A stretch of 64,000 nt of DNA from NCBI RefSeq assembly GCF_009931435.1, contig NZ_CP043414.1; one strand, written 5' to 3'. This document shows positions 1 through 56,559 of the stretch, piece by piece; within the stretch, counting starts at the first letter, position 1, and each line of letters starts with the position of its first letter. This DNA comes from Escherichia coli (GTDB lineage Bacteria; Pseudomonadota; Gammaproteobacteria; Enterobacterales; Enterobacteriaceae). The notes beneath the pieces are model-generated. The model searched no databases and was not told the DNA's origin. It saw nothing but the letters and a program-made list of their open reading frames with translations. Made by a program: the position numbers and the translations under genes.

Positions 1-65
1 CTCTACCGGAAGGCATCTGGAGCGGCGACGTTAGCGTACAGTTCGACGCGACCTGGACCAGTTAA
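1..65 (+). CDS. ecpA: EcpA (common pilus major subunit), 3' end only
   Basis: Frame-3 ORF entering from the left edge, translating ...LPEGIWSGDVSVQFDATWTS then TAA at 63-65; sits directly upstream of ecpB as in the ecp operon. Only 21 codons visible. Confidence 0.55.
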   Translation, partial: LPEGIWSGDVSVQFDATWTS

Positions 66-122
66 TCTCTCTGATGTACCAGCAGGGGTAGCCCCCCTGC
101 TTTATTCCTGGACGGAATTGTT

Positions 123-791
123 ATGAAAAAGCACCTTCTGCCTCTCGCTCTGCTGTTTGCCGGAATATCTCCGGCCCATGCGCTGGATGTCGGCGATATA
201 TCATCGTTTATGAACAGTGACAGCAGCACGCTGAGCAAAACAATCAAAAACAGTACCGACAGTGGTCGCCTCATCAATATCCGTCTCGAACGGCTCTCTT
301 CACCGCTTGACGACGGGCAGGTTATCGCAATGGACAAGCCGGATGAGTTGCTACTCACTCCCGCCAGCTTGCTGCTACCCGCCCAAGCCAGCGAAGTGAT
401 CCGCTTCTTCTATAAGGGACCAGTAGATAAAAAAGAGCGCTACTACCGCATTGTCTGGTTTGATCAGGCCCTCAGTGATGCGCAGCGCGATAATGCCAAC
501 CGCAGCGCTGTGGCCACTGCTTCCGCCCGCATCGGCACCATTCTGGTCGTCGCCCCCCGCCAGGCGAACTACCGCTTTCAGTACGCCAACGGCTCCCTGA
601 CAAATACAGGAAATGCGACGCTGCGGATCCTCGCCTACGGCCCCTGCCTGAAAGCCGCCAATGGTAAGGAGTGTAAAGAGAACTACTACCTGATGCCGGG
701 CAAGTCGCGTCGTTTTACCCGCGTGGACACGGCGGATAACAAAGGACGGGTTGCACTTTGGCAGGGTGATAAGTTCATTCCCGTGAAATAG
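123..791 (+). CDS. ecpB: EcpB periplasmic pilus chaperone
   Basis: 222-aa ORF with signal peptide [20 protein letters not shown]; recognised as EcpB/YagY; operon context with usher and adhesin. Confidence 0.9.
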
Positions 792-816
792 ATAGCTGTG
801 CAGATGGATAACGACA

Positions 817-3342
817 ATGCCTTTACGACGGTTCTCCCCAGGACTGAAAGCCCAGTTTGCCTTCGGCATGGTCTTTTTGTTCGTTCAGCCCGATGCCAGC
901 GCTGCTGACATAAGCGCGCAGCAAATAGGTGGGGTGATTATTCCGCAGGCCTTCAGTCAGGCGCTTCAGGACGGCATGAGCATCCCGCTCTATATTCATC
1001 TCGCCGGTAGCCAGGGTCGCCAGGACGATCAGCGAATCGGCAGCGCTTTTATCTGGTTGGATGATGGACAGTTACGCATCCGGAAAATACAGCTGGAAGA
1101 GAGTGAAGATAACGCCAGTGTCAGCGAACAAACTCGACAGCAACTGATGACTCTGGCCAACGCCCCGTTCAATGAGGCCCTTACCATCCCCCTGACTGAC
1201 AACGCGCAGTTGGATCTCAGCTTGCGCCAACTGCTGCTGCAGCTGGTGGTCAAGCGCGAAGCACTGGGCACCGTACTACGCTCACGTAGCGAAGACATCG
1301 GGCAATCCAGTGTTAACACCCTCAGCAGTAACCTGAGCTATAACTTCGGCATCTATAACAACCAGTTGCGTAACGGCGGGAACAATACATCCAGCTATCT
1401 GTCGCTAAATAACGTGACAGCACTGCGCGAACATCATGTGGTGCTCGACGGCTCGCTGTATGGGATCGGTAGCGGTCAACAGGACAGTGAATTATATAAA
1501 GCGATGTATGAACGCGATTTTGCTGGTCACCGATTTGCCGGTGGAATGCTCGACACCTGGAACTTGCAGTCCTTAGGGCCGATGACCGCCATTTCAGCAG
1601 GGAAGATTTACGGCCTTTCCTGGGGAAACCAGGCCAGCTCCACCATCTTCGACAGCAGCCAGTCGGCCACGCCAGTGATCGCCTTTTTACCGGCGGCGGG
1701 CGAAGTACATCTCACCCGTGATGGGCGGCTACTAAGCGTTCAGAACTTCACCATGGGCAATCATGAAGTGGATACCCGAGGTCTACCGTACGGTATTTAC
1801 GATGTGGAAGTTGAGGTGATCGTTAACGGTCGCGTGATCAGCAAACGCACCCAGCGGGTCAATAAGCTGTTTAGCCGGGGGCGCGGTGTCGGTGCGCCGC
1901 TGGCGTGGCAGATATGGGGCGGCAGCTTTCATATGGATCGCTGGTCGGAAAACGGGAAAAAGACGCGACCAGCTAAAGAGAGTTGGCTAGCAGGAGCCTC
2001 GACCTCCGGCTCACTGAGTACGCTTAGCTGGGCGGCAACGGGATATGGGTACGATAATCAGGCAGTAGGTGAAACCCGTCTGACGCTGCCGCTTGGGGGA
2101 GCAATCAACGTTAACCTGCAAAACATGCTGGCCAGTGACAGCTCATGGAGCAATATCGGCAGCATCAGCGCCACACTACCGGGAGGCTTCAGTTCGCTGT
2201 GGGTTAACCAGGAGAAAACCCGCATTGGCAATCAATTGCGGCGTAGCGATGCCGACAACCGTGCAATCGGCGGCACACTCAACCTGAACTCACTGTGGTC
2301 GAAGCTGGGCACATTCAGCATCAGCTACAATGATGACCGCCGCTACAACAGCCATTATTACACGGCAGATTACTATCAAAGTGTTTACAGCGGTACCTTT
2401 GGTTCGCTTGGCCTGCGAGCCGGTATTCAGCGCTATAACAACGGCGACAGCAGCGCCAATACAGGGAAATATATCGCTCTCGATCTCTCGCTACCTCTGG
2501 GCAACTGGTTTAGCGCAGGGATGACTCATCAAAACGGCTACACCATGGCAAACCTGTCAGCACGCAAGCAGTTTGATGAAGGAACCATTCGCACTGTTGG
2601 TGCCAATCTGTCACGAGCCATCTCCGGCGATACCGGTGATGACAAAACCCTCAGCGGTGGGGCGTATGCACAGTTCGACGCTCGTTACGCCAGCGGAACG
2701 CTGAACGTCAATAGCGCGGCGGACGGCTACGTCAATACCAACTTGACCGCCAATGGCAGCGTCGGCTGGCAGGGTAAAAACATCGCTGCCAGCGGGCGGA
2801 CTGATGGCAACGCTGGGGTGATATTCAACACCGGGCTGGAGGACGACGGTCAGATCAGCGCCAAAATCAACGGGCGGATTTTCCCGCTTAACGGCAAGCG
2901 CAACTACCTCCCGCTCTCTCCGTATGGGAGATATGAGGTGGAGTTGCAGAACAGCAAAAACTCACTCGACAGCTACGATATCGTCAGCGGCCGCAAAAGC
3001 CATCTGACCCTCTATCCAGGCAATGTCGCCGTCATTGAGCCAGAGGTGAAGCAGATGGTTACCGTCTCCGGTCGTATCCGTGCAGAAGACGGCACACTGC
3101 TGGCTAACGCACGGATTAACAACCATATCGGCCGAACCCGAACCGATGAAAACGGCGAGTTTGTCATGGACGTGGATAAGAAATACCCCACTATCGATTT
3201 TCGCTACAGTGGCAATAAAACCTGCGAAGTGGCACTGGAACTCGACCAGGCGCGCGGTGCCGTCTGGGTCGGTGATGTGGTCTGCAGCGGCCTCTCATCG
3301 TGGGCGGCGGTGACGCAGACAGGAGAAGAGAATGAGAGTTAA
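817..3342 (+). CDS. ecpC: EcpC outer-membrane usher
   Basis: 841-aa ORF with N-terminal signal peptide; length and sequence recognised as EcpC/YagX. Confidence 0.9.
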
Positions 3343-4975
3343 CCTACTGATAGCGATGATAATCTTTGCGCTATTCTGGCCAGCAACCGCGCTCAGAGCT
3401 GCAGTGAGCAAAACAATCTGGACGGATGCACCGGCACGCGAGTTTGTGTTTGTCGAAAACAACTCAGACGACAACTTTTTCGTCACGCCTGGCGGGGCGC
3501 TGGATCCGCGCCTGACCGGTGCCAACCGCTGGACCGGTTTAAAATACACTGGCTCAGGAACCATCTATCAACAAAGCCTCGGCTACATTGATAACGGTTA
3601 CAACACCGGCCTTTATACCAACTGGAAGTTTGATATGTGGCTGGAAAATTCGCCGGTTTCATCTCCTTTAACTGGCTTGCGCTGCATCAACTGGTACGCA
3701 GGGTGTAATATGACCACCAGTCTTATCCTGCCGCAAACCACCGACGCCAGTGGATTTTATGGCGCGACGGTGACCAGCGGCGGCTCGAAGTGGATGCACG
3801 GCATGTTGTCAGACGCGTTTTACCAGTATCTGCAACAAATGCCCGTTGGCAGCAGCTTTACGATGACCATCAATGCCTGCCAAACCTCAGTGAACTATGA
3901 CGCCAGCAGCGGCGCGCGCTGTAAGGATCAGGCCTCCGGCAACTGGTATGTTCGCAACGTCACCCATACGAAAGCAGCAAATTTGCGGTTGATAAATACC
4001 CACTCGCTGGCGGAGGTATTTATCAACAGCGACGGAGTACCGACTCTGGGCGAAGGGAACGCCGACTGCCGGACGCAAACCATCGGCAGCCGTTCAGGAT
4101 TAAGTTGTAAGATGGTTAACTATACCCTGCAAACAAACGGGCTCAGCAACACCTCAATCCATATATTCCCGGCGATCGCCAACTCGTCGTTAGCCTCGGC
4201 CGTCGGGGCGTACGATATGCAGTTCAGTCTGAATGGTAGTTCATGGAAACCGGTGAGCAATACCGCTTATTACTACACCTTCAACGAGATGAAGAGCGCA
4301 GACTCGATCTATGTTTTCTTCTCGAGCAACTTCTTTAAGCAGATGGTGAACCTGGGGATCAGCGATATCAACACCAAAGATCTATTCAACTTTCGCTTTC
4401 AGAACACCACATCACCGGAGTCTGGCTGGTATGAATTTTCTACCTCCAACACGCTGATTATCAAACCCCGTGATTTCAGCATCAGTATTATCTCCGATGA
4501 ATATACTCAGACACCGTCGCGGGAGGGATATGTTGGCAGCGGCGAGTCGGCACTCGATTTCGGCTATATCGTAACCACCAGCGGTAAAACAGCTGCCGAC
4601 GAAGTGCTGATCAAGGTGACCGGACCCGCGCAGGTGATTGGCGGACGCTCCTATTGTGTCTTCAGCTCCGATGACGGTAAGGCGAAAGTACCGTTCCCGG
4701 CGACGCTTTCCTTTATTACCCGCAACGGAGCTACAAAAACCTACGATGCCGGGTGCGATGATAGCTGGCGGGATATGACCGATGCGCTGTGGCTAACCAC
4801 ACCGTGGACTGATATCTCTGGCGAAGTGGGGCAGATGGATAAGACCACTGTCAAATTTTCGATTCCAATGGATAACGCCATTTCGCTGCGTACGATAGAT
4901 GATAACGGCTGGTTTGGCGAAGTTAGCGCTTCAGGAGAGATTCATGTTCAGGCGACATGGCGTAACATTAACTAA
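3332..4975 (+). CDS. ecpD: EcpD pilus tip adhesin
   Basis: 547-aa ORF, signal peptide [34 protein letters not shown] upstream; overlaps ecpC by 11 nt; recognised as EcpD/YagW. Confidence 0.9.
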
Positions 4976-5654
4976 GGCCCTGCTGACAGTGGTCTGTATG
5001 CTGGCGACACCTTTGACACAGGCGATTTCGGTCGGCAATCTGACTTTTTCACTGCCGTCCGAGACTGACTTTGTCAGCAAACGTGTAGTGAATAACAACA
5101 AAAGCGCGCGGATATACCGTATTGCCATCAGTGCCATCGATAGCCCAGGCAGCAGTGAATTGCGCACTCGACCGGTGGATGGTGAACTGCTTTTCGCTCC
5201 CCGCCAGCTGGCGTTGCAGGCTGGTGAGAGTGAGTATTTTAAATTTTACTATCATGGCCCCCAGGATAACCGCGAGCGCTACTACCGGGTCTCATTTCGC
5301 GAGGTCCCCACTCGCAACCAGACAAGACGCAGCCCAACCGGCGGCGAGGTCAGCACTGAGCCGGTGGTGGTGATGGATACCATTCTGGTAGTACGACCTC
5401 GTCAGGTTCAGTTTAAATGGTCCTTCGACCAGGTGACAGGAACGGTAAGTAACACCGGCAACACGTGGTTTAAGCTACTGATTAAACCAGGATGTGATTC
5501 GACCGAAGAGGAAGGCGACGCCTGGTATCTACGTCCGGGAGACGTAGTTCATCAGCCTGAGTTACGTCAGCCGGGGAATCATTATCTGGTCTATAACGAC
5601 AAATTCATTAAGATTAGCGATTCCTGTCCTGCTAAGCCCCCTTCGGCGGACTAA
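4944..5654 (+). CDS. ecpE: EcpE pilus chaperone
   Basis: Track ORF 4899-5654 (251 aa); EcpE/YagV is 236 aa beginning [14 protein letters not shown] (signal peptide), so start placed at the in-frame ATG at 4944. Confidence 0.85.
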
Positions 5655-5967
5655 GACTTATCCATCGGACGAGGGAAGAATTCCACCTCAGAGACTCAAA
5701 TAATCGTTTAAATGATGTGGAAGCGATCGTCAATGTCACCTGTAATGATGGGCTTTCTCATATGTACACCATAGTGTTCAGGAGACACGGAAAAGTGCCA
5801 GGCAGCCTGCTAACGAGTGGTTTCTTCACGAATTAGTACGTAAAATCGGTAACGGCTGGAAATCATTCAATACTCACACTATCGAAAGTTCCCCAGCCAA
5901 CCGCGGTACGTTCTTACATACGATGTACCGCTGTTCTCTTTACGATTTATAGCTGTACTGGTGAATT

Positions 5968-6297
5968 ATGAGCAATCTGAATCCATGCATGACGTGTGGT
6001 GCCTGTTGTGCATTTTTCCGCGTCTCTTTTTACTGGGCCGAAGCCGACGATGCTGGCGGTACCATTCCCGCCAGGCTCACTGAACAAATATCCCCTTTTC
6101 ACCGATGCATGAGCGGTACCAATCAGAAAAACCCCAGATGTATTGCCCTTGCAGGAACACCGGGCAAAAATGCCTGCTGCACGATATATAAAAATCGATC
6201 GTCCACGTGCAGAGAATTCGCCATGTCTGGTGAGAACGGAGAAGTCAATGAGGCTTGCAATCGTGCAAGAGCTAAATACGGGCTGACACCGTTATAA
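5968..6297 (+). CDS. ykgJ: YkgJ, small Cys-rich putative metal-binding protein
   Basis: 109-aa ORF with CxxCxxCC motif ([11 protein letters not shown]); recognised as YkgJ; conserved position between ecpE and yagU. Confidence 0.85.
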
Positions 6298-6319
6298 AGA
6301 TGCAATAATTAATTGCACT

Positions 6320-6353
6320 GCCCCGCCAGCTATAATCGCGGGGCTTCGTTTTT
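6320..6353 (+). terminator. Rho-independent terminator after ykgJ
   Basis: GC stem GCCCCGC / GCGGGGC with about 11-nt loop, followed by TTCGTTTTT, about 25 nt after the ykgJ stop. Confidence 0.5.
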
Positions 6354-6504
6354 CAGGGATAACAAAACCCGAAACTTCTTCCATCTGCCAGCAACAATGC
6401 CTCTTCCTCTATAGGGTTCTCCGGATCTACAGCATCCTGAAGTAGCGCGATGTACTCACTGGCTATCTGCATCAGAAAGTTAAAAACAATGTTTTTAACC
6501 TATA

Positions 6505-6531
6505 AAAATGGCGCTGTATTTGCGCCATTTT
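6505..6531. terminator. Bidirectional hairpin terminator between convergent ykgJ and yagU
   Basis: Perfect 10-bp inverted repeat AAAATGGCGC...GCGCCATTTT flanked by A-run and T-run; lies just downstream of the yagU stop (minus strand). Confidence 0.55.
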
Positions 6532-6545
6532 TATCATTCAATGCA

Positions 6546-7160
6546 TTATCTGTTTGAGCCTAAAGGGATCTCAGGGTCTGGCTCATGAGTAATTCTGTTT
6601 CGTAAATCTCTGCGAATAATTTCAATGGACCAGAACCAGACTAAATGTCCAAAAATTTCAGAAACATTCTCATACCACGGGAGATCAAACAGAGGTGGCG
6701 TCAGTCCCATGAGAGGGAATGAAATCATATGAACAAAAAGTTGGGCTAAAGCACCTGCCAGTAAGCCCTGCCAGAGTTTAATTTTTGGAAATACTTCAGC
6801 GACCACACAATAACCGACAGCAAACACTATCGAAAAGATAATGTGCGTAACACCAACCCAGTTAAAGACATGCCCGGCAAAGGTATAAACAGCCGAATTT
6901 GGATCTGTCAGTCCCAGCCAGTCTCGAAGAAAAATATACGGAGGATTGAGAAAATTACGGGAGCAATCAATTTGCCCAGCAGCCCTGATTAATGATTCCG
7001 GGCCACACGCTGCATTAAACATATCCACCGGGCTACGTGGCGGCAATGGAACTTCAGCCCCCCACTTCACAAATGCGGAAACAACGCCAGCAATTAGCCC
7101 AATGAATGCAGCAAGACCATAACGTCTGCGGTTCGGTGGAGTTTGTTCAAATATATTCAT
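6546..7160 (-). CDS. yagU: YagU inner membrane protein (DUF1440)
   Basis: 204-aa ORF with several hydrophobic segments; recognised as YagU ([25 protein letters not shown]...). Confidence 0.85.
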
Positions 7161-7565
7161 ATTTACCCTGTTTGTTTCATTATGTTGTACACCTCTTCAG
7201 GAGTATTCATAAAACAAGATAAATGTAAAGAACTGTATTGTTTTGTATAATGCAATGGTGACTAATCGCCAATTAATATAAGCACCATCATTTCTCCCTA
7301 TTTTTATGTTAGAAGTGACAACGACTTGCAGGGTGATGCAGAGCTGACAATCACAGGTTTCCTTATCGGTTTTTGCATCGCACAACTAAAGCAATAAACT
7401 AGCTCCCGTCATCGGCGAATATGAATTAATTAGCCGGGCTCATAGCTGCATTCGCGTTTTAAGAATAATCCTCCTGCTCTCACCGACTATGCTTAACGTT
7501 TAAAAAAGCATCAACACTCTCGCAACGCACTCTTATTTTCCCCTTTAGAATACCGGAGGCCTGGT

Positions 7566-8255
7566 ATGAGCAACCAAGGCGAATACCCCGAAGATAATCG
7601 GGTTGGGAAGCACGAGCCGCACGATTTTAGTTTGACCCGCCGCGATCTGATTAAAGTGAGCGCCGCAACGGCGGCGACCGCCGTGGTTTATCCTCATTCT
7701 ACGCTTGCGGCAAGCGTTCCGGCAGCTACACCCGCGCCAGAGATAATGCCCCTGACACTTAAGGTGAACGGCAAAACCGAGCAGCTTGAGGTGGATACCC
7801 GAACCACGCTACTGGACGCTTTGCGTGAAAATCTGCATCTGATCGGTACCAAGAAAGGTTGCGATCACGGACAGTGCGGAGCCTGTACCGTACTGGTCAA
7901 TGGTCGCAGGCTTAATGCCTGCCTGACGCTGGCAGTCATGCATCAGGGGGCCGAGATCACCACCATTGAAGGCCTGGGTTCACCAGAGAATCTTCACCCC
8001 ATGCAGGCGGCCTTTATCAAGCATGATGGCTTCCAGTGCGGCTACTGCACCTCCGGGCAAATTTGCTCATCAGTAGCGGTGCTAAAAGAGATTCAGGACG
8101 GCATTCCCAGTCACGTCACGGTCGATTTGGTTTCCCCTCCAGAAAGAACTGCCGATGAGATCCGTGAACGTATGAGCGGCAACATCTGTCGCTGTGGTGC
8201 ATACGCTAACATCCTTGCCGCCATTGAAGACGCTGCGGGGGAGATAAAATCATGA
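7566..8255 (+). CDS. paoA: PaoA, periplasmic aldehyde oxidoreductase 2Fe-2S subunit
   Basis: 229 aa; Tat-type signal ([19 protein letters not shown]); ferredoxin Cys clusters ([25 protein letters not shown]); SD GGAGG upstream. Confidence 0.9.
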
Positions 8256-9208
8256 AGGCGTTTACCTATGAACGTGTGAACACCCCTGCCGAGGCGGCAC
8301 TTAGCGCTCAGCGCGTACCCGGCGCAAAATTTATCGCTGGCGGGACCAATCTGCTGGACCTGATGAAGCTGGAAATTGAAACGCCAACCCACCTTATCGA
8401 TGTGAACGGGCTCGGGCTCGATAAGATTGAAGTGACCGACGCGGGTGGGCTGCGCATCGGCGCACTGGTACGGAACACCGACCTGGCGGCTCACGAGCGC
8501 GTGCGTCGTGATTACGCGGTACTCTCCCGCGCTCTGCTCGCTGGCGCGTCTGGTCAGTTACGTAATCAGGCAACCACCGCAGGTAATCTGCTCCAGCGCA
8601 CGCGCTGCCCCTATTTTTACGACACCAATCAGCCCTGCAATAAGCGCCTGCCCGGGAGCGGCTGCGCGGCACTTGAAGGCTTTAGCCGTCAGCACGCGGT
8701 GGTAGGCGTAAGCGAAGCCTGCATTGCCACCCATCCGAGCGATATGGCGGTCGCAATGCGGTTGCTGGATGCGGTGGTGGAAACCATCACGCCGGAGGGA
8801 AAAACTCGCAGTATCACACTGGCTGATTTTTATCACCCACCGGGGAAAACGCCGCACATTGAAACCGCCCTGCTTCCCGGTGAGCTTATCGTTGCGGTGA
8901 CGTTACCTCCGCCGCTCGGCGGAAAACATATCTACCGCAAGGTGCGCGATCGCGCCTCCTACGCCTTTGCCCTGGTATCGGTCGCGGCGATTATTCAGCC
9001 TGACGGCAGCGGGCGCGTCGCGCTGGGCGGAGTAGCACATAAGCCCTGGCGCATTGAGGCTGCGGATGCTCAGCTATCCCAGGGGGCGCAGGCCGTGTAT
9101 GACGCGCTGTTCGCCAGCGCCCATCCCACCGCTGAAAATACCTTTAAACTCCTGTTGGCGAAGCGAACGCTTGCCTCCGTACTGGCTGAAGCGAGGGCAC
9201 AGGCATGA
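8252..9208 (+). CDS. paoB: PaoB, FAD-binding subunit
   Basis: 318 aa; 4-nt start/stop overlap with paoA; recognised as YagS/PaoB. Confidence 0.9.
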
Positions 9209-11403
9209 AATTTGATAAACCCGCAGGGGAAAACCCGATCGATCAGCTGAAGGTTGTCGGTCGTCCCCATGACCGCATCGACGGACCGCTGAAAACTACC
9301 GGCACGGCACGCTACGCCTACGAATGGCATGAAGAAGCCCCCAACGCCGCCTATGGCTATATCGTCGGTTCCGCCATTGCCAAAGGACGCCTCACCGCCC
9401 TAGATACGGACGCCGCGCAAAAAGCGCCGGGCGTACTGGCTGTCATTACCGCCAGTAACGCTGGGGCACTCGGCAAAGGCGACAAAAACACCGCCAGGCT
9501 GTTAGGCGGCCCCACTATTGAGCACTATCATCAGGCCATTGCGCTGGTAGTGGCCGAGACCTTCGAACAGGCGCGAGCGGCGGCCTCGCTGGTGCAGGCG
9601 CACTATCGCCGTAATAAAGGAGCTTACTCCCTGGCGGACGAGAAACAGGCCGTCAGTCAGCCGCCGGAAGACACGCCCGATAAAAACGTTGGTGACTTTG
9701 ACGGGGCTTTCACCTCCGCTGCAGTGAAAATTGATGCTACATACACGACCCCGGACCAGAGCCATATGGCGATGGAGCCGCATGCCTCGATGGCCGTCTG
9801 GGATGGAAATAAGCTTACCCTCTGGACCTCAAATCAGATGATTGACTGGTGCCGCACCGATCTGGCAAAAACGCTGAAAGTGCCCGTGGAGAATGTGCGT
9901 ATTATCTCCCCGTATATCGGCGGAGGGTTTGGCGGCAAGCTATTCCTGAGAAGCGATGCGCTGCTGGCGGCCCTCGCCGCCCGTGCGGTGAAACGTCCGG
10001 TTAAAGTGATGCTCCCCCGCCCCACTATTCCCAATAACACCACGCACCGCCCCGCCACCCTTCAGCACCTGCGTATCGGTGCCGACCAGAGCGGGAAAAT
10101 CACCGCTATCTCACATGAAAGCTGGTCCGGAAACCTGCCCGGCGGCACGCCGGAAACGGCGGTACAGCAAAGCGAATTACTCTACGCAGGGGCAAACCGT
10201 CATACCGGCCTGCGGCTCGCCGCGCTTGATTTGCCGGAAGGGAACGCCATGCGTGCGCCCGGCGAAGCCCCCGGTCTGATGGCGCTCGAAATCGCGATCG
10301 ACGAACTGGCGGAAAAAGCGGGCATCGATCCCGTCGAGTTTCGCATCCTGAATGACACTCAGGTTGACCCCGCCGACCCGACGCGCCGCTTCTCTCGCCG
10401 TCAGCTTATCGAGTGCTTGCGCACCGGAGCGGATAAATTTGGCTGGAAGCAGCGCAACGCTACACCCGGACAGGTGCGCGACGGGGAGTGGCTAGTCGGC
10501 CACGGTGTTGCGGCGGGCTTTCGCAATAATCTGCTGGAAAAATCGGGTGCTCGGGTTCACCTCGAACAAAATGGCACCGTTACCGTAGAAACGGACATGA
10601 CCGACATTGGCACCGGCAGCTACACCATTCTGGCCCAGACGGCAGCGGAAATGCTTGGCGTACCGCTGGAGCAGGTTGCGGTTCACCTCGGCGATTCCAG
10701 TTTCCCGGTTTCTGCGGGTTCTGGTGGACAATGGGGCGCGAATACCTCCACCTCCGGCGTTTACGCCGCCTGTGTGAAACTTCGCGAAATGATTGCCTCG
10801 GCGGTCGGGTTTGATCCTGAGCAGTCGCAGTTTGCCGACGGCAAGATTACCAACGGTACCCGAAGCGCCACGCTACATGAGGCCACCGCAGGCGGCAGAC
10901 TGACAGCGGAAGAGAGCATTGAGTTCGGCACTCTCAGCAAGGAGTACCAGCAATCGACCTTTGCCGGGCATTTTGTGGAGGTCGGCGTGCATAGCGCGAC
11001 GGGAGAAGTTCGGGTCCGGCGTATGCTCGCCGTGTGCGCAGCGGGGCGCATTCTGAATCCGAAAACTGCACGCAGCCAGGTCATTGGCGCGATGACTATG
11101 GGCATGGGCGCGGCACTGATGGAGGAGCTGGCGGTAGATGACCGTTTGGGCTACTTCGTTAATCACGATATGGCGGGGTATGAGGTGCCGGTTCATGCGG
11201 ATATCCCAAAACAGGAGGTGATTTTCCTGGATGATACCGACCCCATCTCCTCCCCGATGAAGGCCAAAGGTGTCGGTGAGCTGGGCCTGTGCGGCGTGAG
11301 CGCGGCTATCGCCAACGCGGTGTATAACGCCACCGGTATTCGGGTACGGGATTATCCCATCACTCTGGATAAGCTGCTCGATAAACTGCCGGATGTGGTT
11401 TAA
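9205..11403 (+). CDS. paoC: PaoC, molybdopterin-binding catalytic subunit
   Basis: 732 aa; 4-nt overlap with paoB; xanthine dehydrogenase-family large subunit; recognised as YagR/PaoC. Confidence 0.9.
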
Positions 11404-26991: not shown

Positions 26992-27606
26992 TTATCCTTC
27001 GATAAAAGCCATCCCTGTAAACGTCCGTCGCGGGTTGCCACGTTCAATCTGGTGATGGAACATTCGCCGCTGCGATTTCAGCGCCGCGCTATTTTCCTGT
27101 TGCTGTTGCTCCAGCTTCCAGGCAATCAGCAATCGCGCCAGCCGTTTGTTGGCATGTTGGCTGCGCTCTGACTGAACCTTCACGCTAATCCCGGATGCCA
27201 GATGCGTGGCGCGTACCGCCGAGTCGGTTTTATTGACATGTTGACCGCCCGGCCCCGACGAACGCAGCGTCTCATAACGGATTGCATCCGATTGTTCCTG
27301 CTCATCAGCGGTAAAACGCCCAATGCCCAGAAACCAGTTTTTGCGCCCATGATGAGGCCGATACGGGCTTGGGCAAATCCACTGAATAGTGCCGCACCAA
27401 CTTTCGCTTAATGCCCATGCGTTATCGCCATCCAGAGAAATCAGCGCCGAACGCAGCGTGTCAGAGTAGCGGCCCGTTTCTGTTTCCAGCACCGTTACCG
27501 CGACGTCTTGTCGGGTAGCTTCTTTAATCAACCTGTCCAGCGCCTTTTTCACTGCGAGACAACATTCTTCCGGTCCCTGAGCTGAGGAGAGTTGCAGCAA
27601 GATCAT
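26992..27606 (-). CDS. prfH: PrfH, peptide chain release factor homolog (RF-H), apparently intact
   Basis: Track ORF 26992-27690; start set at in-frame ATG 27606 giving 204 aa ([21 protein letters not shown]...); contains GGQ motif ([17 protein letters not shown]); ATGA start/stop overlap with upstream rtcB-like gene. Confidence 0.8.
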
Positions 27607-28754
27607 CCTTTTTTCCCTCCACTGTTTTTGAGCGTCAGCACCGGACGCAGTCGCGCGGCAGGAATAATTAAACCGGCCTGCACCAGACATTGCACCACAC
27701 TTTCAGCCGATTTATAGGCTTGTGGCGCTTCTTCAAAGATGAGTTGTTTATCGCGACAAATTACCCGACCGCCAAGTTCAGTACGTGAGAGTTGCGTCGC
27801 CGTGTATTTCGCTGCCAGACGCCCTTTACACTCGGTGCGCCCCCATTTACGCCCTGCCCCATGCGCCAGTGAGTGAAGCGTTTTTTCGTTCGCAACAGGT
27901 TTAACCAGCCAGGAGTAATCACCGCGTGAACCGGGAATAATCACCAGACCGTTGTCATCCGGCGTAGCCCCTTTACGGTGTAACCATCCTTGTTGATCGC
28001 CGATTCGACATGCGCTAACAAAGTTATGCGCCACATCCAGAACCGAATTTCCGTTGGCCTTAACTTGTTGCATTATGCGCAAAGCGATCAGCTGGCGATT
28101 AATACGCGCAAACGCCAGCGCATCATCATGTTCCGCAATATAACTTAGCGCGTCGTCACTGCCTTCCGGCAAACCATGATGCGAAAACGAGGCAATATGC
28201 CGCTGTAAAATAGACTGCCCTAAACCACGCGAGCCGCTATGGACCAGCAGTTGCAGATGCTGCGCATCCAGACCTGACAGTGCAAACAGTTCCGCATCGA
28301 TGATTTGATCAATCTGTTGCAGTTCTGCAAAGTGGTTACCGCCACCGATAGAGCCAAGCGCGCAGCGCCACGGATGCTGTGCAAACGCTGACGGCAGGTT
28401 TTCCTCCAGCCAGCTTTCTTCAGCAACGTCATCCAGCGCAGATAATCGCTTTTCAAACTTATCGGCGTTGTATTTACGCGCGAGAATATCTGTTTGCCAT
28501 AGCGCCATACCGCAGCCGATATCATTGCCGACCAGTGCCGGGTAAAAACGGCCTACGGAGAAGAACGCTGCGCCAATCGGATAGCCGCGTCCTGGGTGTA
28601 AATCTGGCATCCCTACGACGCGTTGCATGTCGGGTAAATTTGCCGTGGTGTGTAATTGTTGGATCGCTGAACTCTCGATCCACAGGTCATCAGATGCGAT
28701 GGTAAATACCGCATCGGATAAGGGACGAATATATTTGCCCATGTACCATTCCAT
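27603..28754 (-). CDS. RtcB-family RNA ligase paralog (RtcB2/YkfJ), apparently intact
   Basis: 383 aa; RtcB-like motifs ([34 protein letters not shown]); translationally coupled to prfH. Start could be the fifth codon. Confidence 0.8.
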
Positions 28755-29059
28755 TTATACTCGTCATACTTCAAGTTGCATGTACTGCGACTGCGTTCGT
28801 TCACCCCAGTCACTTACTTTAGTAAGCTCCTGGGGATTCACTCGCTTGTCGCCTTCCTGCAACTCGAATTATTTAGAGTATATAAATATAAAAATCAGGA
28901 AATGGCAGACGAATCCAGGGCAAGAAAAAAAGAATTAATCCTGGAAAGGTCTGCAAAGAGTCATTGATAAAGGATTTTTCATGATTTACCTCCTTGCAGT
29001 TTGTGGAATAAGAAAACGCGCACATATTAGGCGGGCGTTATTTTCATTGCAAGCTGGAT

Positions 29060-29512
29060 TTAGTGTTGCGGTTTATATCGCATATGAAAATTAGTAAACC
29101 ACGCTCCCCGGCATTCAACGCGCTGCTGCTTAACTGTCTGAAAACCATAACGTTCAAAAAAGGGTTTTGCGGTTATGCTGGCATCTACCGTAAGTTCGGA
29201 TTCAGACTTAATCAAAGGTTTTAACAAAGCGCTGGCAACCCCGCAGCGGTTGTATTTCGGATCAACAAATAACATATCGATATAATGCTCAATGCAGGTA
29301 ATAAAGCCGACCAGTTGTGTATTAATCACCGCAACCCGCACTTGTGATTTCGCGAGTTTCTCTTTCCATCGATGTTCATCAATCTGCGCCCAGGCGGCAA
29401 TTTGTTGTGGTGAATAATGCTGACTGGCGGTCATCGTAACCGCTCTAATAAAAATAGCGCATAGCTGCTGAAAATCGCCAGGCTGATAGTCTCTTATTTG
29501 TATATTATTCAT
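29060..29512 (-). CDS. yafP: YafP, GNAT-family acetyltransferase
   Basis: 150 aa recognised as YafP ([21 protein letters not shown]...); ATGA overlap with dinB stop. Confidence 0.85.
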
Positions 29513-54417: not shown

Positions 54418-56559
54418 TCAAAATTGCCGCATATCCGGCATTCCGGGGGGTAAATCTTTCGGCACAGGCGCATCCGGCACAGGTTGTGTGGCACCACAGT
54501 TCCAGTTAATCACCGGCGCATCACCGTTCACATCCGACTCCCCTTCCAGATGAATGTGCGTACCATTAAGAAATATGCTTCCGTCCTTCGTCAGCACCAG
54601 CCTTGCCTTACCACAGCAGAGTTCAAGATGCTCACCGGCAGAATAAACTGCTGTTTGTCCGGTGTTTTCCTTCATCGTCTTGCCCACCGAGAAGGTGACG
54701 TTATTCCCTACATTGACGCTGTAGCCCATTCCCACCATCAGTGATTTATGCAGCCCTACCTGTGAGGACTGCAACAACGCCACCGAGGTATTCATAATGC
54801 CGCCTACCGTCGTCTGGTAAGCCACGCCCACCGTCAGCGCACGAATGATCCCCACCTTTTCAACCTGGTTTGATCCCACTTTGATAATCTGGTTACTGCC
54901 CACCGTTTCCACCTGGTTGACACCAACCGTCTGTATCTGATTAACGCCAATGTTCTGGATCTGGTTATTGGTAACGGTGATCGCCTGGTTGTTACCTATT
55001 TTTTCGGCATGGTTGTTTATCACATCAGTGGTGCGGTTATTCAGCACCTCGGTGTTCATGTTCTTCTGCGCGTGGATGTAGACCTGTTCTTTCCCTGTCG
55101 CATCGTCAAACTTCAGTTCATTAAACCCGCTGCCCTTATAGGTTTTCGAACGAATGGTCATCTGCGTCTTTGTTCCCGGCAGGCTGCCGGGGGTGCGGTT
55201 TTCCTGGTGGTAGGTACGCCCCATAATAATCGGCTGGTCCGGATCGCCGTTGAGGAAGTCCACAATGACCTCCTGACCCACACGCGGTATCGCCAGGTTA
55301 CCAAACCCGGTGCCTGCCCACGCCTGTGCCACACGGATCCAGCATGAACTGTCCTGGTTTGACGGGTTATAACGGTCCCAGTTAAATTTCACCCGCACGC
55401 GGCCATGTTCATCACAGAAGATTTCTTCTCCTGCCGGTCCCGTCACGACGGCGCTCTGCGGGCCATCCACCAGCGGTTTCAGCAACGGCTGTGGCCGCCA
55501 TGTTCTGTCTGCCGGTATTACCGCAAAGTGGTTATTCAGCGTGGTACCTGAACCCCTGCGTCCCGGCACCGCCTGCGGCTGCTCGCCGTGCAGTTCACTT
55601 GCCACCACCTGCCATTCCCGGTTCAGGTTCGCCTGCGGATGCCCCGTCAGCGCAATTCGCCGTCCCGGCCATATCTCCGGAGAACGGCTTGTTCCGCGCG
55701 CCACTTCTGCGTTGTTTCGCCAGCCATCCATCTGCCAGCGGGCAAAGTTCTGCCCGTGGGCACCCTTGAAACGTCCGGGGTAGTCATACACTTCATACTG
55801 TGTGCGCTGGTAATCCTGGTACTGGCCTTCCTGATCAAAACGCCCTGCCCAGCCGGGTCGTTTAAAGGTGTAGTCCTTGGTCACCACGGAAGAAGGGCGG
55901 ATTTGTGCGCTGTAGCGGAACTGGCTGATGCATAGGGTGCTCACCTCGGTACGGGTGTTCGGATTCCAGGGGATCTCAAAGGACTCCGGCAGATAACGCA
56001 CGGTGTCGCACAGGACCAGGCTCTGGTCGGTACTTTTTTGCGCGTGCTCCTCATAAAAGAAGATGCCTTCCTCCGCCGCCATCCGGCACAGGAAATCGTA
56101 ATCGGTTTCGCCGTACTGGACACAAAACTCACGGGAAGGATGCGGCTCGCTGAACAGCGGACTCCACTCGGTCACCCCGTTTTCTTTCAGGATCGTCGCG
56201 AGTATGCTTTCGATGTCCTCATTCTGGAAGATACGGAAGTTCTGGCGCAGCCCTGTGCGCCACAGCGGTGGGCATACCTTCATGCTGTACAGCATCTGGT
56301 TTTTGTCGTTCTCCCCCAGTTCAAACCAGGTCACCACACCTTTCACCCGGCGCTGTACGTCATCGCCCTGCCATATCGTCAGGTAGGCCATTTTGTCCAG
56401 CACCTGCGCAAATTCAAGGGAGAGAAACTGCTGGCTGACCAGAGAGAGATCGAGGGAAAAGAGCGAAGAGAGTGACTGGTTCAGATGAAAGGAGACCACC
56501 GCAAACGCGTCCGGTGGCAGGCCGTCCACTTCCAGCGTGAAACGTAATCCGGTTGACAT
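54418..56559 (-). CDS. vgrG: VgrG (TssI) spike protein
   Basis: 713 aa; gp27/gp5-like region and C-terminal beta-helix repeats (VGVNQVETVGSNQIIKVGSNQVEKVG); no large C-terminal effector extension. Confidence 0.9.
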   Translation of the reverse strand: MSTGLRFTLEVDGLPPDAFAVVSFHLNQSLSSLFSLDLSLVSQQFLSLEFAQVLDKMAYLTIWQGDDVQRRVKGVVTWFELGENDKNQMLYSMKVCPPLWRTGLRQNFRIFQNEDIESILATILKENGVTEWSPLFSEPHPSREFCVQYGETDYDFLCRMAAEEGIFFYEEHAQKSTDQSLVLCDTVRYLPESFEIPWNPNTRTEVSTLCISQFRYSAQIRPSSVVTKDYTFKRPGWAGRFDQEGQYQDYQRTQYEVYDYPGRFKGAHGQNFARWQMDGWRNNAEVARGTSRSPEIWPGRRIALTGHPQANLNREWQVVASELHGEQPQAVPGRRGSGTTLNNHFAVIPADRTWRPQPLLKPLVDGPQSAVVTGPAGEEIFCDEHGRVRVKFNWDRYNPSNQDSSCWIRVAQAWAGTGFGNLAIPRVGQEVIVDFLNGDPDQPIIMGRTYHQENRTPGSLPGTKTQMTIRSKTYKGSGFNELKFDDATGKEQVYIHAQKNMNTEVLNNRTTDVINNHAEKIGNNQAITVTNNQIQNIGVNQIQTVGVNQVETVGSNQIIKVGSNQVEKVGIIRALTVGVAYQTTVGGIMNTSVALLQSSQVGLHKSLMVGMGYSVNVGNNVTFSVGKTMKENTGQTAVYSAGEHLELCCGKARLVLTKDGSIFLNGTHIHLEGESDVNGDAPVINWNCGATQPVPDAPVPKDLPPGMPDMRQF

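Follow-up and report, generated by a model that had tools for sequence, protein, structure and literature searches.

The hairpin upstream of Escherichia coli rtcB2-prfH is very probably the core of an optional ERIC insertion, next to a conserved leader in which control of the operon most likely lies

REP/BIME and ERIC sequences are dispersed extragenic palindromes that are able to sit in transcripts. REPs are about 35 bp long, G+C-rich, often clustered and mobilised by RayT/TnpA(REP). ERIC (enterobacterial repetitive intergenic consensus) elements, also referred to as IRU or RU-1, are non-coding and scattered over the genomes of enterobacteria. Elements of this type carry terminal inverted repeats, target duplications and a flanking TA, and they are classed as miniature inverted-repeat transposable elements, or MITEs (PMC3184786). 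The 127-nt consensus of the E. coli ERIC (RU-1) is printed together with a Salmonella copy in Delihas 2007 (PMC2759123). For Yersinia, a review that deals with De Gregorio 2005 states that ERICs within transcripts can give rise to RNase E sites and affect the decay of the mRNA (PMC3184786).

The second described system of relevance is the leader of an RtcB-family gene in Pseudomonas aeruginosa. The PA5471.1 leader peptide was reportedly described by Morita et al. in 2009 as an attenuator of armZ. The gene product PA5471 (ArmZ) belongs to the RtcB family and its gene is co-transcribed with PA5470 (prfH); this pair is induced by ribosome-targeting drugs via the 13-aa leader peptide PA5471.1, encoded about 250 bp upstream (PMC12057347, PMC13041342). 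The P. aeruginosa promoter is constitutive. When the leader is translated to its end, a terminator can form, which a stalled ribosome prevents (PMC12057347, PMC13041342). In one review the leader-peptide mechanism of MexXY is considered to be apparently unique to MexXY. On the E. coli side, strain ATCC 25922 owes protection against colicin E3 to its chromosomal rtcB2-prfH operon (PMC9223846), and ykfJ is reported to be inducible by 4-azaleucine, as cited in PMC3516279, the one published hint on induction that the literature search found. The E. coli rtcB2/prfH literature examined does not mention a promoter, a leader or a uORF.

The rtcB2-prfH locus described here lies in a 64-kb window of E. 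coli DNA, the term window referring to the whole stretch that was analysed. The minus strand carries dinB (30564-29509), yafP (29512-29060), rtcB2 and prfH, after which pepD follows on the plus strand.

27603-28742, minus strand: rtcB2, RNA ligase of the RtcB family, 379 aa, full length and not the K-12 ykfJ remnant
26992-27606, minus strand: prfH (release factor H), the start of which overlaps the rtcB2 stop (ATGA)
28743-28755, minus strand: ribosome-binding region of rtcB2, a conserved block AATGGAATGGTAC before the ATG, containing an alternative in-frame ATG at 28754

Two options exist for the start of rtcB2, the PGAP-style start at 28742 and the first in-frame ATG at 28754, and the string ATGGA(A/T)TGGTA(C/T)ATGGGC around it is kept from E. 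coli to Pseudomonas. A first-pass annotation had drawn attention to a stable hairpin between yafP and rtcB2 and had proposed it as a leader structure or protein-binding site controlling rtcB2-prfH. We hold with high confidence that this hairpin is the central stem-loop of an ERIC (IRU, RU-1) copy, that the copy is an optional insertion, and that it is most likely the neighbouring leader that controls the operon.

28804-28835, minus strand: central hairpin with the stems CCCCAG/CTGGGG and CTTACT/AGTAAG, the ERIC core, found by inverted-repeat search and folding
28756-28882, minus strand: ERIC/IRU element, a full-length imperfect palindrome of 127 bp, on the rtcB2 sense strand TATACTCTAAAT...GACGAGTATA
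28858-28882, unstranded: ERIC terminal inverted repeat, arm distal to rtcB2, 25 nt, 80% complementary to 28756-28780
28756-28780, unstranded: ERIC terminal inverted repeat, arm on the rtcB2 side, its last base 1 nt from the conserved rtcB2 ribosome-binding block

Read on the plus strand, positions 28804-28835 are CCCCAG-TCA-CTTACT-TT-AGTAAG-CTC-CTGGGG, and both the sequence and the nested 6-bp stems reported by the first-pass annotation are confirmed. Its estimate of a position about 50-80 nt before rtcB2 was equally sound, the hairpin lying 50-81 nt ahead of the ATG at 28754 and 62-93 nt ahead of the PGAP-style start at 28742. The AT-rich surroundings are also borne out, the part of the yafP-rtcB2 spacer upstream of the 127-bp element having 37% G+C versus 52.5% for the window. 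Folding of the leader, proposed in the same annotation as a check, gave -20.4 kcal/mol for the hairpin in the rtcB2 sense RNA (minus strand; z = -5.5, with 0 of 200 shuffles as stable) and -15.1 kcal/mol (z = -3.4) in the RNA of the plus strand.

The hairpin is the mere tip of a much larger structure, an imperfect palindrome of 127 nt at 28756-28882. As sense RNA, the whole palindrome is predicted to form one long hairpin of -56.0 kcal/mol (z = -8.9), the antisense RNA reaching -45.5 kcal/mol. The folds of single-stranded DNA are also significant, at -22 and -28 kcal/mol (z = -5.5 and -6.9). Such a degree of structure is far beyond chance, and it is explained by the palindrome being one member of a repeat family.

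The element aligns gap-free with the E. coli ERIC (RU-1) consensus of Delihas at 109 of 127 positions and with the Salmonella copy SeRU-1 at 119 of 127. In a blastn search of complete E. coli genomes it was found at 55,163 places in 5,425 of 5,426 genomes, each genome carrying 2-20 copies with a median of 11; the window contains one. From the gap-free match over 127 nt, the dispersed copies and the palindrome with its terminal inverted repeats it follows that the element belongs to an already known family of MITE-like repeats, ERIC/IRU. It has in common with that family its length of 127 bp, its imperfect palindrome, 86-94% identity, the primer-site matches and the intergenic position, as well as the dispersed copies, the flanking TA with target duplication and the occurrence of internally deleted short forms. 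No essential difference was noted, the local oddities being the position in the rtcB2-prfH leader and the presence of three alleles at the site. The hairpin core presumably corresponds to the primer sites of ERIC-PCR, since parts of ERIC1R and ERIC2 match it exactly; against the element the full primers show 2 and 1 mismatches, respectively. REP/BIME sequences are likewise dispersed palindromes, but in sequence and in length the element fits ERIC and not REP. A transposase cannot be encoded in 127 bp, and the open reading frames across the element are mechanical ones on the plus strand, among them the frame of 42 aa to which Delihas drew attention in RU-1 (PMC2759123). The K-12 annotation carries no repeat feature at this position.

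In Rfam, the element gave a full-length match (positions 1-129, 46.7 bits, E = 1e-8 to 2e-9) to the Vibrio RNA AS5 (RF02818, V_AS5), the gathering threshold of which is 96 bits, so that the element is not a member by the Rfam criterion. Both share the outer stems and the core GAGUGAAU.CC...GUGACUGGGGUG, although the Rfam consensus structure leaves this central core unpaired, unlike the element. V_AS5 is probably the Vibrio branch of ERIC-like repeats. A match to Rfam STnc350 on the opposite strand (E = 0.5) was dismissed. To our knowledge, there is no ERIC family in Rfam.

Control of the operon is most likely exerted in the leader adjacent to the element (about 28890-29052, minus strand), where a promoter-like site, a mini-ORF, a hairpin and a T-run succeed one another.

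29024-29052, minus strand: promoter-like site TTGCAA-N17-TAATAT, directly downstream of the yafP stop codon
28989-28995, minus strand: strong Shine-Dalgarno sequence AAGGAGG of the mini-ORF
28935-28982, minus strand: leader mini-ORF MKNPLSMTLCRPFQD followed by a stop, 15 codons, by its sequence a homologue of P. aeruginosa PA5471.1
28905-28954, minus strand: leader hairpin with the 5' arm GCAGACCTTTCCAGG, equal to codons 10-15 of the mini-ORF, and the 3' arm CCTGGATTCGTCTGC
28890-28902, minus strand: TTTCCTG and then the T-run (28894-28890), the ERIC being inserted 7 nt further on

This section of the spacer is invariant in all of the E. coli alleles that were aligned. The promoter-like site scores 8/12, which is under the scan threshold (the sigma-70 scan of 28600-29200 found no site at threshold), and it was spotted only via its conservation across species. 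The -10-like hexamer, a spacer of 16-17 nt and the distance to the Shine-Dalgarno sequence are kept in 12 species, 10 of which have a TTG-type -35, and the sequence of the promoter-like spacer varies among the 12. A mini-ORF of 13-15 codons, preceded by a strong Shine-Dalgarno sequence, is present in every species examined, with an N-terminal half that diverges. The leader hairpin folds with -18.4 kcal/mol (z = -4.6) and was recovered unaided by RNAalifold from the 12-species alignment. Six pairs of its outer stem hold in 12/12 sequences and two outer pairs are changed on both sides, from AU to GC, i.e. in a compensatory manner. Because the T-run begins 11 nt past the hairpin in E. coli (3-17 nt in the species tabulated), the two together are not a textbook intrinsic terminator.

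An alternative helix is put forward as a hypothesis, in which CUGCAAAG just 5' of the Shine-Dalgarno sequence would pair with CUUUGCAG at codons 9-11 and share GCAG with the leader hairpin. The two segments are complementary in 96.7% of cells versus 30-54% when slid, and no covariation was found in this helix. A further pairing, helix C, between the Shine-Dalgarno sequence of the mini-ORF and the UCCU after the hairpin, is 75% paired, again with no covariation.

The same layout precedes rtcB2 in 14 further taxa from Escherichia to Pseudomonas (other Escherichia, Klebsiella, Citrobacter, Salmonella, Kosakonia, Cronobacter, Intestinirhabdus, Pragia, Proteus, Providencia and Pseudomonas). What lies upstream of the leader differs among the taxa: yafP, dinB, a regulator of the DeoR or of the AsnC type, or a peptidase. 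The Rfam search of the leader matched no family and the literature text search of the mini-ORF peptide string gave no match. The 'hypothetical protein' that PGAP annotates in this region in some strains is not the mini-ORF.

In the P. aeruginosa locus, the leader ORF MIQFSTLCRLRLA (followed by a stop) was found 254 nt upstream, and its product of 13 aa has the published residues Q3 and F4. The leaders of E. coli and P. aeruginosa have in common the GCAAAGGAGGT Shine-Dalgarno context, the LCR codons (CTTTGCAGG, or CTTTGCAG(G/A)), the G(G)TCTGCC arm GGTCTGCC, the ribosome-binding block CATGGATTGG..ATGGGC and, downstream, an RtcB-family gene followed by prfH. They differ in the length of the leader ORF, 13 codons in P. 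aeruginosa versus 15 in E. coli, and in the distance from the mini-ORF stop to the rtcB2 start, about 85 nt in the empty alleles of E. coli versus about 210 nt in P. aeruginosa. The P. aeruginosa system also has a MexZ/MexXY output, which is missing in E. coli, where the leader would consequently control only ribosome rescue and repair genes. Judged by these shared motifs, the E. coli leader is a compact homologue of the characterised PA5471.1 attenuator, and we infer by analogy that it would work like PA5471.1. The likeness is that of the neighbouring leader and not of the ERIC hairpin. The idea that the leader might be undescribed was dropped given the PA5471.1 literature.

In the picture proposed, the promoter-like site would be followed by an attenuator consisting of mini-ORF, hairpin and T-run that controls rtcB2-prfH, and ribosome stalling on the leader ORF would lead to read-through, as in P. 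aeruginosa PA5471.1. The ERIC copy was inserted at a TA in the AT-rich stretch between this attenuator and the ribosome-binding region of rtcB2. Located after the attenuator T-run and 1 nt before the ribosome-binding block, it would occur only in read-through transcripts and there form a self-contained hairpin. Where it is present, the ERIC is probably transcribed within the rtcB2 5' UTR, because the conserved promoter-like site (with a score of only 8/12) lies upstream.

Strain alignment distinguished three alleles in the yafP-rtcB2 spacer, namely full, short and empty. The full 127-bp allele is that of the window, of 2013C-4282 and of K-12; strains in which the full ERIC accompanies an intact operon include LF82, NRG 857C and 2013C-4282.

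28881-28882, unstranded: TA, the target dinucleotide, which was duplicated and is found a second time at 28756-28757
28793-28864, unstranded: 72 bp missing from the short alleles, the whole hairpin included, flanked by the imperfect direct repeat AGTTGCAG/AGTCGCAG

The empty site of E. whittamii, ...ATATTTA-TA-AATGG, is exactly what is left of the window sequence once 125 bp are taken out; the occupied site is ATATTTA-TA[...]TA-AATGG. The ERIC therefore entered at the TA and duplicated it. At the equivalent site K. oxytoca, UBA3516 and Citrobacter are empty, and the species-representative genomes set the direction of change, which they indicate to be insertion. In K. spallanzanii the equivalent TA is occupied by a short ERIC-like element of 60 bp; this could reflect a preferred target, or an insertion that is tolerated or even useful there. 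The distribution of the alleles in 5,426 E. coli genomes was as follows.

Empty site: 1,439 genomes (junction-specific search)
Full element at the locus: 1,650 genomes (junction-specific search)
Full element with an rtcB2 5' region that is not K-12-truncated: 88 genomes, 'non-truncated' meaning only that the 5' ~300 nt of rtcB2 extend beyond the K-12 breakpoint at window position 28536
Full or short element with non-truncated rtcB2: 1,281 genomes, hence about 1,193 short, the count being full plus short as short alleles with non-truncated rtcB2 reach 80.7% query coverage
Short element with truncated operon: about 1,143 genomes, by subtraction and in agreement with evenly spaced rows of the match list

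The hairpin is present in 88 of the approximately 2,720 genomes with non-truncated rtcB2 (about 3%) and missing in about 97% of them. What is found at the locus is an insertion polymorphism and not a purpose-built regulator.

A K-12-type truncated operon accompanies the full ERIC in 1,562 of 1,650 genomes. Such an association would be in line with a co-opted ERIC that modulates the expression of rtcB2-prfH, by means of an RNase E/III site, of transcript stability or of hindrance of the 30S subunit at the ribosome-binding site. The RNase E sites created by ERICs in transcripts, as stated in the section of the review quoted above (PMC3184786), point in the same direction, and so does the geometry of the site: 1 nt separates the base of the element from the ribosome-binding block, and in the minimum free energy structure of a 191-nt fold the flanks CCAUU and AAUGG can lengthen the ERIC stem. 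The same fold nevertheless leaves the rtcB2 AUG unpaired, and the link with truncated operons may be phylogenetic. The excess of full ERIC among the truncated operons is most simply explained by lineage linkage, because the K-12 breakpoint is also found with the short allele. Co-option is conceivable but, in our estimate, rather unlikely. By analogy with the ERICs studied in Yersinia, the ERIC in the leader may alter mRNA processing or stability incidentally. The higher stability of the sense fold (-56 versus -45.5 kcal/mol for the antisense fold) would fit a degree of constraint acting on the RNA.

The 72 bp lost from the short allele lie within the palindrome, between imperfect direct repeats, and the deletion is seen on two flank backgrounds. 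Together with the significant folds of single-stranded DNA, it might suggest that a cruciform or a recombination hotspot acting at the level of DNA is behind the variation of the locus, both the loss of the 72 bp and the rtcB2'-'prfH deletion of K-12. We consider this improbable: about 220 bp lie between the ERIC and the K-12 breakpoint (28536), which shows no ERIC sequence, and internal deletions are the expected decay of any long palindrome, with no function implied.

The dispensability of the hairpin is illustrated by ATCC 25922, the strain in which protection against colicin E3 was described. Its assembly (NZ_CP009072.1), in which a large inversion is seen between two island modules, has rtcB at 4927994-4929133 and yafP at 4929323-4929775. 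The spacer of 189 bp contains the 57-mer of the empty-site junction and lacks the ERIC core. The operon of this strain works without ERIC, hence the hairpin is not needed for functional expression. Outside E. coli, the hairpin is not found in front of rtcB2 in Klebsiella oxytoca, Citrobacter, Kosakonia, Cronobacter, Pragia, Proteus, Providencia and Pseudomonas. A role as dedicated cis-regulatory leader structure or protein-binding site for rtcB2-prfH would agree with the great stability of the hairpin and with its place in a probable 5' UTR, 50-81 nt before the start. It is however very improbable in view of the approximately 11 occurrences of the same sequence per genome at unrelated loci, of the absence or deletion of the hairpin in about 97% of the non-truncated genomes and in ATCC 25922 with a functional operon, of its absence in the other genera examined, and of the K-12 copy, which bears an uncompensated mismatch in the outer stem. 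Because most non-truncated genomes and ATCC 25922 are without it, the hairpin is neither a dedicated nor a required regulator of rtcB2-prfH.

The suggestion of the first-pass annotation thus holds in part. The hairpin probably does belong to a transcribed rtcB2 5' leader, as the conserved promoter-like site indicates, but a dedicated control role falls away for an ERIC core that about 97% of the non-truncated genomes lack. Likewise, a control element probably exists in the leader, as had been surmised, but it is the adjacent mini-ORF with its hairpin and not the ERIC hairpin. That the hairpin, which is G+C-containing and downstream of yafP, should be the terminator of the upstream dinB-yafP operon is scarcely credible and was rejected, in agreement with the earlier judgement on yafP: there is no T-run after it on either strand, the terminator scan of 28600-29200 called no site, and it lies at least 178 nt past the yafP stop, beyond the promoter-like site and the mini-ORF.

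The hairpin itself is of little weight, being that of a textbook ERIC copy, a generic repeat that should not be taken for a specific regulator. The full, short and empty alleles constitute a clean natural experiment within the leader that precedes genes of known phenotype, protection from colicin E3, and the site could show what an ERIC hairpin does to an E. coli transcript, which is still poorly documented. It may tentatively be proposed, as a possibility on the unlikely side, that rtcB2-prfH is switched on in Enterobacterales by stalling on the 15-codon leader and that the ERIC is a regulatory polymorphism changing the response in a minority of strains. If this is true, the operon would be induced by the damage that it repairs, e.g. 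colicin E3 cleavage or translation inhibitors. The homology of the leaders joins the fields of E. coli RtcB2-PrfH and Pseudomonas MexXY, and it predicts that E. coli rtcB2-prfH would be induced by ribosome stalling.

The minus-strand rtcB2-prfH operon, coding for an RNA ligase of the RtcB family and release factor H, is preceded by a conserved leader. Judged by its sequence, this leader is a homologue of PA5471.1, the leader-peptide attenuator of armZ-prfH in P. aeruginosa. It carries no annotation in the genome records examined, and no mention of it was found in the papers examined on E. coli RtcB2-PrfH. The leader and its elements, together with the arms of a possible alternative helix, are the following.

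28890-29052, minus strand: conserved leader upstream of rtcB2-prfH
Within the leader, minus strand: promoter-like site, TTGCAA-N17-TAATAT
Within the leader, minus strand: SD of the mini-ORF, AAGGAGG
28982-28935, minus strand: mini-ORF of 15 codons, MKNPLSMTLCRPFQD and a stop
28954-28905, minus strand: leader hairpin, with compensatory changes across genera
Within 28890-29052, minus strand: T-run
28993-28999 and 28951-28958, minus strand: arms of the possible alternative helix

Downstream of the leader, two start codons are candidates for rtcB2, at 28752-28754 and 28740-28742. PGAP places the start at the ATG at 28742 (MGKYIRP...), and the second ATG lies in frame four codons upstream (MEWYMGK..., with MDWY in most other genera), within the conserved block ATGGA(A/T)TGGTA(C/T)ATGGGC. 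Since Citrobacter FP75 has this upstream ATG out of frame and Providencia lacks it, the block is more likely to be an RBS than coding sequence.

The E. coli yafP-rtcB2 spacer can also contain an ERIC, a 127-bp palindromic repeat (28756-28882), from which a central stretch of 72 bp (28793-28864) is deleted in the short allele. This deletion has identical end points on two flank backgrounds, the RIVM type with K-12-like flanks and the O121/E1V33 type with TTTTTTAATTGTTACTCTCAAT, and is seen with truncated as well as non-truncated rtcB2. Such a distribution points to recombination or to a deletion that recurred between the AGTTGCAG/AGTCGCAG repeats. Two mechanically predicted ORFs cross the ERIC.

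28627-28938, plus strand: ORF crossing the ERIC
28776-28967, plus strand: ORF crossing the ERIC

They are antisense to the rtcB2 start and include ...YTRHTSSCMYCDCVRSPQSLTLVSSWGFTRLSPSCNSNYLEY..., which Delihas 2007 (PMC2759123) described as a 42-aa 'RU-1 reading frame'. No evidence for gene status was found for these plus-strand ORFs.

ERIC-like elements were observed at related loci. In Klebsiella spallanzanii (locus L022), a short element of about 60 bp, with the termini of ERIC and a different centre, ends 14 nt before the rtcB2 ATG. It occupies the TA that corresponds to the insertion point in E. coli, a position empty in K. oxytoca. Either the same small AT-rich target received insertions independently, or the two lineages share an old one. 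Salmonella enterica (L025, 376-502) has a diverged full-length element that matches the E. coli consensus at 72%. Its site is not that of E. coli, as it has dinB on one side and the promoter of the rtcB2 leader on the other. In Intestinirhabdus alba (L032), a fragment of an ERIC end lies upstream (77-113), and the loop of the leader hairpin has gained about 200 nt while both arms are intact.

On the other side of yafP, the yafN-yafO toxin-antitoxin pair is missing from the window strain, in which dinB directly overlaps yafP (junction 29509-29512). The same arrangement is found in ATCC 25922, O121 16-9255 and 2013C-4282, and yafNO is present in K-12, XH992 and ZJ3920. The ATCC 25922 assembly (NZ_CP009072.1, about 2.952 Mb and 5.002 Mb) displays an apparent inversion of about 2 Mb, as a result of which dinB-pepD lies at 4.93 Mb, and the pks and HPI islands lie at 3.0 Mb. 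The inversion is flanked by two oppositely oriented island modules that resemble each other in gene content, with zinc-ribbon, inovirus Gp2 and Hha genes. It may be genuine, or it may be an artefact of the assembly.

Within the leader itself, the motif CUGCAAG, CUGCAAAG in most species, stands immediately 5' of the mini-ORF SD, and its reverse complement CUUUGCAG lies at codons 9-11 of the mini-ORF. Across 12 species, 96.7% of cells are complementary for this alternative helix, and no covariation was seen. Because GCAG belongs both to the alternative helix and to the leader hairpin's 5' arm, the two predicted structures would be mutually exclusive, in the manner of an antiterminator/terminator pair.
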